A stretch of DNA of 64,000 nt from Escherichia coli (GCF_013315695.1 NZ_CP054354.1), one strand, 5' to 3'. Positions 46,171 through 47,464 are shown, numbered from the stretch's first letter. Numbers and translations are program-made. The notes: generated from the letters alone by a model not told the origin.

Positions 46171-46992
46171 TTACCAGGGGGATAACGGAACCCTGAATAA
46201 CGCAGTGGGTAATATTTTTCCTGTTATCAGATATTCTGCCTGTGCCGGAGTGAGTGTTACGGCGCGAACAGGGATATCCGGAGATATTTTTCGGGCCATC
46301 TGAAACCAGCCTTCTTTTTCTATATCCATTCTGGCCGGATATAACGAAAGTACCGGATAAATAATGGTGTTATTAATTTCTTTTTTCTGCCTGAGCAGAA
46401 CGCCGCAATATTCTCCGGAATGCGTTCCGGCAAACGGAAAACCATGCCAGAGAATAATGTCCATATTCTCGCGGGCTGAAATAATCCTGCAGAATATCTC
46501 CTGTGTGGCTGGCCAGTCTCCCGGACGATACAGTGGATAATGCACCCTGCCGTTCAGCCATTCCGGACTGAGATAAAACCAGTCAGCCAGTGCTGCAAGA
46601 ATCTCCCCGGTCAGATAGTCAGTGAGTCTGTCCGGCTCCCGGAAGACGGCAGGGCGGATATTCCAGGGGGCCAGTAATGCAGCCATCGTTGTTGCGCTGA
46701 TATCATGTGCCTGCATGATGTGCTCCATCCTGCTGAGAAGACGGCGGACGATGTTATCTGCAGGAAGAAACATTTCACTTAACGCGTCTTCGACCAGGAT
46801 ACGCGTCAGGTCAGAGACGGAAAGAGAAAGCTGTTCGCTCATGATACCAAGGGCATCCCTGACTCCCTGCGGATAACGAACCTGCAGGGGTGTGGACTGC
46901 AGCTGGCGATGACTGAGCAGGCATTCGCAAATTCGCTCCCTGTCCAGGGAGAGCATCATACGGGCGGCAATACCTGTGCTGTCAGTTTTCAT
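46171..46992 (-). CDS. hypothetical protein, 273 aa, between pilV and the OMP gene
   Basis: ORF only; no confident motif. Confidence 0.4.
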   Translation of the reverse strand: MKTDSTGIAARMMLSLDRERICECLLSHRQLQSTPLQVRYPQGVRDALGIMSEQLSLSVSDLTRILVEDALSEMFLPADNIVRRLLSRMEHIMQAHDISATTMAALLAPWNIRPAVFREPDRLTDYLTGEILAALADWFYLSPEWLNGRVHYPLYRPGDWPATQEIFCRIISARENMDIILWHGFPFAGTHSGEYCGVLLRQKKEINNTIIYPVLSLYPARMDIEKEGWFQMARKISPDIPVRAVTLTPAQAEYLITGKILPTALFRVPLSPW

Positions 46993-47464
46993 TTCACCTC
47001 CATGCGGGTCAGCGTGTTTTGTTCATAAATTGAGTCTAAAGAGAGTGTTTTTTAAACGGAAGCGAGTTATTTCGATCGTTATGATCGAGTGTGTTTCAAG
47101 AGTGTTTGCAACTCTGTTTTAAGGGCGAATGAAAAGGATTCGGACAGGAGGTGACTGAGCATGCTGGCATGAGATATTGCCAGTCCCCGGGTTTCTGCAC
47201 GGGTTTCAAGGTCGAAATCGTGCAGTGTCACGACAAACAGCCCGTTTCTGCACCCGACAGTTGCAGGGTAGGGAACAAAATAAGGGGAAATTTTGCTGGT
47301 CTGTTTACGCCTGGCATCGAGTTTGCTGACCAGCTGATATGCCCGGAGATTTATTTCATTTGCCGTGCCAGTGGGAGCGTCATATCAAATCATCTCCAGA
47401 CCAACACAAAATTACGCCTGTGGTAACGGTGTTTTCTCTGTGTATACCTATCAGATGTGAGTCC

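Follow-up and report, generated by a model that had tools for sequence, protein, structure and literature searches.

What has become of the shufflon that should follow pilV in a plasmid of this kind? The 64-kb stretch of Escherichia coli DNA analysed here, referred to throughout as the window, carries pilV, whose product is the thin-pilus tip adhesin. In the IncI1 plasmids R64 and ColIb-P9 the genes run in the order pilU, pilV, traE, traF, with the shufflon and its recombinase gene rci between pilV and traE, and the constant Shufflon_N region of PilV is fused to a variable C-terminus at sfx, a 19-bp site whose consensus has a GTGCCAA core. The window shares this order, this fusion and this consensus. 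Unlike R64 and ColIb-P9, however, it has one sfx, no complete alternative exon, only residues 274-338 of Rci and a C-terminus of the type that we call collar-type. A preliminary description had read the locus as a pilV followed by about 470 bp of noncoding DNA and an unfamiliar gene for 273 residues in the position of the shufflon and rci. We conclude that the shufflon and rci have very probably been lost by two deletions, leaving pilV frozen in one isoform with traE, the 273-residue gene, as its normal neighbour.

Features of the pilV-traE interval

The comparisons below use two IncK2/Z-typed plasmids with an intact shufflon, pWP7-S17-ESBL-01_1 (NZ_AP022174; L002) and pSH280-2 (NZ_MG299145; L003), together with CP088445 (L005) and pO113 (NC_007365; L006). 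The features on which the argument turns are listed here in window coordinates.

46171-46992, minus strand: traE, 273 residues
46993-47464: gap between pilV and traE, 472 bp
46993-47149, minus strand: native DNA upstream of traE, 100% identical to L002
47163/47162: junction J2, within 47150-47163; the 13 bp beyond it are absent from L002
47157-47351, minus strand: rci pseudogene fragment, 195 bp, Rci residues 274-338 of 374
47349/47350: deletion junction J1, L002 position 3800 joined to 6001, with a 2-bp 'AT' microhomology
47350-47460, plus strand: partner-exon remnant, the last 36 codons and stop, FISFAVPVGASYQIISRPTQNYACGNGVFSVYTYQM followed by the stop
47465-47836, minus strand: fixed variable C-terminal exon of pilV, holding a phage tail-fibre 'collar' domain
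47837-47855, minus strand: sole surviving sfx, GTGCCAATCCGGTGTGTGG, a perfect 19 bp inside pilV
47465-48826, minus strand: pilV from the ATG chosen by PGAP, or to 48850 from the TTG of the mechanical open reading frame (ORF); assigned from the ORF and Pfam

A single recombination site

The whole 64 kb was searched for sfx as GTGCCAATCCGGTNNNTGG, with up to two mismatches allowed. The site at 47837-47855 is the only match, whereas intact relatives have 5-6, and the two or more inverted sfx that flank the invertible segments of a shufflon are thus reduced to one. This surviving site consists of the 7-bp core and a 12-bp right arm, corresponds to the 'repeat-g' type of IncK2 plasmids (PMC5350095), and specifies ..CQSGVW.. 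at residue 325, where the constant part of PilV gives way to the variable part. It was overlooked in the preliminary description, lying outside the range 46993..47464 suggested there for a search; a GTGCCA-containing sequence near 47363 was put forward as resembling sfx. That sequence is indeed present, on the plus strand, but the resemblance is spurious. It agrees with sfx at 6/7 core positions and at about 2/9 of the specified arm positions, forms part of the coding sequence of the partner exon (..A-V-P-V-G..), and is kept unchanged in the intact relatives, where it is not among the sfx sites.

The first junction and the stub of a partner exon

The length given earlier for the gap after pilV was right (472 bp, 46993-47464), but its description as noncoding DNA does not hold, since pieces of rci and of a shufflon segment survive in it. 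When the gap was used as the query in a sensitive DNA search, its middle proved to match, at 99%, the 3' part of a gene annotated as a 'site-specific integrase' in close relatives, in which that gene sits between pilV and traE. Aligned with these relatives, the gap reads as a deletion scar and not as a novel spacer.

The flanks of the lesion are 98-100% identical in pWP7-S17-ESBL-01_1 and pSH280-2. Unlike the window, these plasmids have a shufflon of about 1.8 kb with three segments and six perfect sfx, and a 374-residue Rci; as an active switch would predict, L002 and L003 differ in the isomer of this shufflon that they show. The alignment with L002 is broken into window 47949-47349 on L002 3200-3800 (98.8%), 47350-47163 on 6001-6188 (98.4%) and 47149-46910 on 6361-6600 (100%). 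The first break is J1, where ..GAAATAAAT is joined to CTCCGGGCATATCAG.. and the parents share 'AT' only; neither parental sequence resembles sfx. Across it 2,200 bp have gone, namely what remained of segment 1, including its distal sfx, then segments 2 and 3, four more sfx, and rci codons 1-273.

The stub next to J1 belongs to the convergent partner exon of that same segment 1. Its sfx and first 80 codons are gone, and what is left matches the tail of the 116-residue alternative C-terminus of L002. The preliminary description had suggested looking for inverted pilV C-terminal fragments; this plus-strand stub at 47350-47460, lacking both head and sfx, is one such fragment. With 36 codons of 3' sequence and no sfx through which to join pilV, it is all that the locus retains by way of an alternative C-terminal exon.

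Short reads notoriously misassemble shufflons (Brouwer 2015; Sekizuka 2017, PMC5430464), and a real shufflon might in principle have been collapsed or dropped by the assembler owing to its inverted repeats. For this locus such an artefact is scarcely credible. J1 does not lie at a repeat but joins unique partner-exon and rci sequence with 2 bp shared, three quarters of the single-copy rci have disappeared as well, and 132 complete plasmids, deposited independently, and 96 complete genomes share the identical junction. The first of these counts comes from a 161-bp query spanning J1, which was matched end to end in 132 PLSDB plasmids from E. coli, Shigella, Klebsiella and others, all of them with the same single arrangement, in contrast to the isomer difference between the intact L002 and L003; another 257 PLSDB records match one half only, and the halves split exactly at J1. 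The genomes are 96 of 5,426 complete E. coli genomes.

Neither a consensus sigma-70 promoter nor a minus-strand terminator is present in the spacer between the scar and traE, so that traE may be transcribed by read-through from pilV. The region 44000-50000 gave no Rfam family match. These results suggest that nothing in the gap points to a new regulatory RNA or element.

The remnant of rci and the second junction

The rci fragment was found by a tblastn search of the 64 kb with the 374-residue Rci of a relative (93.8% identity, E 3e-35), which gave no other recombinase-like match in the window. It begins two residues past the catalytic Tyr272, between RYTH and LRAYQ, and has lost the start codon, the last 36 codons and all of the R-H-R-Y residues (Tyr272, H/R236-240, R156, H263). 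An intact rci, of about 374-384 codons with its R-H-R-Y tetrad, is therefore missing from beside the pilV segments, and the earlier statement that the window holds no gene of tyrosine-recombinase size stands, this 65-codon fragment being all that was recovered. A search of the rest of the replicon, also proposed there, has the same outcome: complete plasmids of the lineage match residues 274-337 only, in one place per record, and no tyrosine recombinase is annotated in the collinear complete plasmid NZ_CP097366.1. A nearby rci together with inversion isoforms, named at the outset as grounds for refutation, was thus not found in these plasmid records. In RefSeq the same 195 bp of plasmid pMS7163B, a member of the lineage whose region is identical to the window, are labelled 'integrase; incomplete; missing N-terminus and C-terminus'.

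At the other end of the fragment lies J2, where rci codon 338 is followed by ..ATGCTCAGTCACC.., a sequence that forms the right end of the roughly 0.7-kb rci-traE spacer in plasmids of the L005 and pO113 types; the match of L005 to the gap starts at window 47164. This arrangement implies a second deletion, in which the tail of rci was lost and which probably also took most of the rci-traE spacer. Its size is 172 bp replaced by 13 bp if measured against L002, or about 0.8 kb against an L005-type spacer. Only 'GC' or a short ATGCCAG-like repeat is common to rci and the spacer at this point.

The spacer itself is polymorphic among these plasmids. L005 (4287-5000) and L006 (16233-17140) carry an additional module there, roughly 0.7-0.9 kb long and with small membrane-protein-like ORFs, which L002 and L003 lack and of which the window retains only the last 13 bp. 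L002-type plasmids have apparently lost the module by deletion between short AGTC..TCCTGTC repeats.

Could the switch nevertheless still work, with Rci supplied from elsewhere on the replicon, from the chromosome or from a co-resident I-complex plasmid? One perfect sfx remains, and I-complex plasmids with an intact rci are common in the same hosts (2,214 records match at least 80% of Rci). We nonetheless regard such rescue as very improbable. Inversion needs two inverted sfx flanking an alternative exon, but the window has one sfx and a partner exon that has lost its own sfx and 80 codons, and no Rci homologue occurs elsewhere in the window or in the complete plasmids of the lineage. Rci provided in trans could at most fuse the sfx of the window with an sfx on another plasmid.

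The 273-residue gene is traE

The next gene-like ORF of at least 50 residues after pilV is that at 46171-46992 on the minus strand. Its size and its position after the gap were correctly described at the outset; it does not, however, replace the shufflon and rci but lies in the normal place of traE. The protein is 53-54% identical to the products of IncI1 genes annotated as traE, over 100% coverage (E about 1e-93), near full-length copies occur in 1,878 plasmid records, source names say TraE, and the gene directly follows rci in every intact relative examined, between rci and traF. Full-length homology to the IncI1/R64-type protein, together with this position, identifies it as TraE, an orthologue of IncI1 traE, although at 53-54% the identity between the window and IncI1 proteins is limited.

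TraE has no sequence match in the PDB, and none of the families of Pfam, NCBIfam or PHROG takes it in. The lack of a family, and the label 'hypothetical protein' that PGAP often gives it, would suit a lineage that never had a shufflon and carries a novel gene in the position of the shufflon and rci. To that reading we attach next to no probability: the segment and rci remnants in the gap are 98-99% identical to the sequences of intact relatives, and the same gene occurs downstream of rci in shufflon-bearing plasmids. A novel gene replacing the shufflon is refuted by these remnants and by the orthology with traE. Modelling suggests that TraE has an XRE-type helix-turn-helix domain and an alpha/beta C-terminal domain. 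The 35 genes that pMS7163B needs for conjugation on surfaces do not include traE (PMC10286972).

The frozen PilV adhesin

PilV is intact, with 453 residues from the ATG of PGAP (the mechanical ORF of 461 residues starts at the TTG at 48850), and it ends where the preliminary description placed it, with a stop codon at 47465-47467. Pfam finds Shufflon_N (E 2.8e-99) and Collar (PF07484; E 3.2e-13, residues 347-394 of the 461-residue ORF), the constant region being joined to the C-terminus at sfx as in a shufflon. Of its 453 residues, 452 are identical in the collar isoform of pWP7-S17-ESBL-01_1, which has an active-type shufflon.

In the PDB, residues 334-395 have matches in 2XGF, the tip of the long tail fibre gp37 of T4 (E 2e-16), and in 9CUY, a short tail fibre (E 5e-12), and the variable C-terminus is 40-50% identical to phage tail-fibre proteins. 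By homology, then, the C-terminus contains a collar domain (PF07484) related to the gp37 tip, the feature that marks the collar-type receptor-binding tips of phage tail fibres. This C-terminus occurs mainly in B/O/K/Z-type I-complex plasmids, in which about 410 records match it at no less than 90% identity; at that threshold the numerous IncI1 plasmids are not represented. Source names conflict, with 'Shufflon protein B' applied to a 66%-identical Salmonella fragment and 'shufflon protein A' to the partner exon in L003, and no letter of the R64 series (A-D') could be assigned; hence our name for it.

The same collar-type C-terminus occupies the expressed position in both of the rci-less lineages considered here (the second is that of pO113, discussed below). 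Of the three intact relatives that were examined, two also have it there in the isomer deposited. Its positions are as follows.

Window: 47465-47836
L005: 1588-1978
L006: 15474-15864
L002: 3294-3684

Its recurrence in the expressed position could be due to selection, to a site bias of Rci, or to chance.

Comparison with other plasmids that have lost rci

A second lineage, represented by pO113 and p3521 (the IncB/O reference, NC_014843), resembles the window in having no functional rci and one intact sfx, and it expresses a homologous collar-type PilV C-terminus with about 93% amino-acid identity in the variable part. Unlike the window, it has its junction within the distal inverted sfx of segment 1, with CCTGACACCGGATTG joined to TTGCTGCG, and the whole segment survives, together with the last roughly 35 rci codons (about 340-374) and the full 0.7-kb spacer. 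This junction is common to 41 PLSDB plasmids including p3521, compared with 132 for J1, and the pO113 remnant locus may be compared with the window directly.

L006 (NC_007365), 15474-16232: pO113 remnant locus, for comparison with window 47157-47163

On the sequences of the two junctions, the loss of rci in pO113 and p3521 is to be regarded as an event independent of that in the window.

The pO113 arrangement raises the question of whether Rci brought about its own loss, by site-specific recombination between directly oriented sfx or pseudo-sfx in place of illegitimate recombination. The independent pO113/p3521-type junction inside an inverted sfx would fit such a process, and in a hand alignment the rci sequence at the pO113 breakpoint matches 12/19 sfx positions and lies about 3-6 bp from J2. 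For the window it is improbable. The J1 partners are not sfx-like and share 'AT' only, J2 shares only the 'GC' or short repeat noted above with the spacer, and a deletion of the 5' end of rci by its own product needs a second upstream site, which is absent. An Rci-mediated sfx-by-sfx deletion was accordingly rejected for J1, neither partner having an sfx-like sequence. The position of the pO113 breakpoint near J2 may reflect a secondary Rci site or coincidence.

Engineered counterparts of the frozen state are also known. In TP114 delta-rci the removal of rci locks the shufflon (PMC9045228), and in a pCT rci knockout liquid transfer is reduced to Salmonella but not to E. coli (PMC4083329). In TP114 delta-rci and pCT rci::aph, PilV is locked and the range of liquid-mating recipients narrowed, which by analogy is the phenotype that would be expected for the window; in both, unlike in the window, all the segments persist and Rci in trans can restore activity. 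The active shufflon of pCT (IncK1) and its rci-knockout phenotype are taken here from the literature alone (PMC3377399, PMC4083329).

A general remark on inactive shufflons has been published: Cottell et al. (2011) observed that pO113, pO26_vir and pSERB1 'apparently have an inactive shufflon', with the recombinase absent or disrupted (PMC3377399). A full-text literature search found no paper on the specific deletion in the window, and only this remark applies to it.

A model for the loss of the shufflon

The ancestor would have had the standard order of pilV, a three-segment shufflon, rci and traE. An illegitimate deletion of 2.2 kb, running from the middle of the partner exon of the first segment to rci codon 273 and using 2-bp microhomology rather than sfx, would account for J1, and a second illegitimate deletion would have removed the 3' end of rci and most of the spacer before traE. 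Left over would be an intact pilV, one orphan sfx, the 36-codon partner stub and a 65-codon rci fragment without catalytic residues, and the two deletions would explain why traE lies only 472 bp from pilV. Inversion is impossible in a locus that has a single sfx, lacks a complete alternative exon and keeps an rci stripped of its R-H-R-Y tetrad; this bears out the earlier supposition that the adhesin is fixed, and the lack of a second sfx and of an alternative exon means that Rci acting in trans could not switch it either. The thin pilus would now be tipped by one unvarying adhesin, whose collar domain is T4-gp37-like.

The variable C-terminus of PilV sets recipient specificity in liquid mating in R64, pCT and TP114 (PMC5350095, PMC4083329, PMC9045228). 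Recipient choice in liquid would accordingly be fixed in the window's lineage, and surface mating, which is driven by the tra genes, would probably be unaffected. pMS7163B transfers efficiently on surfaces, where most pil genes (only pilT scored) and traE are dispensable, and its liquid transfer from MG1655 to J53 is only about 2e-6 (PMC10286972). This low liquid transfer would fit a fixed adhesin that is poorly matched to K-12.

Several points weigh against this account. Something other than an adhesin mismatch could explain why pMS7163B mates poorly in liquid, and the ligands mapped for the R64 PilV variants do not include that of collar-type PilV (PMC9045228). The absence of minor isoforms is deduced from the presence of one sfx and no partner exon in the sequence, and the two deletions may have come in either order.

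It is tempting to go further and regard the loss of the shufflon as adaptive, through selection for a specialist adhesin, with rci codon 338-340 as a secondary Rci target and a route to self-destruction. The grounds for this are that two independent deletions froze the same collar variant and that both lineages have spread widely in E. coli and Shigella. We think it unlikely; the shared freezing of the collar and the near-coincident rci breakpoints are post-hoc leads of low probability.

The replicon and its gene order

The genes around the gap are all on the minus strand, in the classic I-complex order.

51710-53218, minus strand: pilQ
50614-51708, minus strand: pilR
50016-50552, minus strand: pilS
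49486-49971, minus strand: pilT
48844-49470, minus strand: pilU
44867-46069, minus strand: traF (TraF_2, E 1e-68), after which the tra operon continues normally

Beyond traF come traH, traI and traJ and then a Sog-like primase gene. A 3.6-kb query from pilU to traF has 100% identical counterparts in many complete plasmids, typed IncK2/Z, MOBP and MPF_I, that come from E. coli, Shigella sonnei and S. flexneri, and Klebsiella. The window as a whole is collinear, at about 99% identity or more, with the complete plasmid NZ_CP097366.1 (IncK2/Z, MOBP, MPF_I) except at 59349-61536. A transfer region of the I-complex (IncB/O/K/Z cluster) is recognised by a pilL-V type IVb thin-pilus operon, traE-traK, sog, Dot/Icm-like tra genes, a MOBP relaxase and MPF_I; the order of the ORFs and the collinearity with NZ_CP097366.1 place the window in this group, and it is an I-complex conjugative plasmid typed IncK2/Z.

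Other features of the window were noted in passing. The exception at 59349-61536 is an insertion of roughly 2.2 kb relative to NZ_CP097366.1, between a traC-like gene and pilI; its genes encode a 564-residue flotillin-family protein (59248-60942) and a 206-residue OB-fold protein (60969-61589), and the pair is found in pO113 at 97.9% identity. At 21000-24000 lies an island of low G+C content (0.39-0.42 against about 0.55 elsewhere), with a gene for a 528-residue protein that has a TnsA-endonuclease N-terminal domain (21276-22862), adjoining excA (23136-23789). The stretch 39000-41000, within the ORF at 37928-41989 for a 1,353-residue Sog/LPD7-type primase, has an AT skew down to -0.34 and encodes a repetitive acidic linker rich in Thr, Ala and Glu, with near-repeats (..TAEDKxxE..SAADTxxEN..).

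Significance

The locus is what ordinary deletion has left of a well-known system. RefSeq already flags its rci remnant as a pseudogene, inactive shufflons in this plasmid cluster have been on record since 2011, and the value of its description lies mostly in annotation and epidemiology, no new system being involved. The pilV-traE junction at 47349/47350 provides a clean clonal marker of a successful lineage in E. coli, Shigella and Klebsiella. Models of the range of transfer in liquid or in the gut should assume one fixed thin-pilus adhesin for this lineage, which also illustrates that wide dissemination is possible without a variable one.
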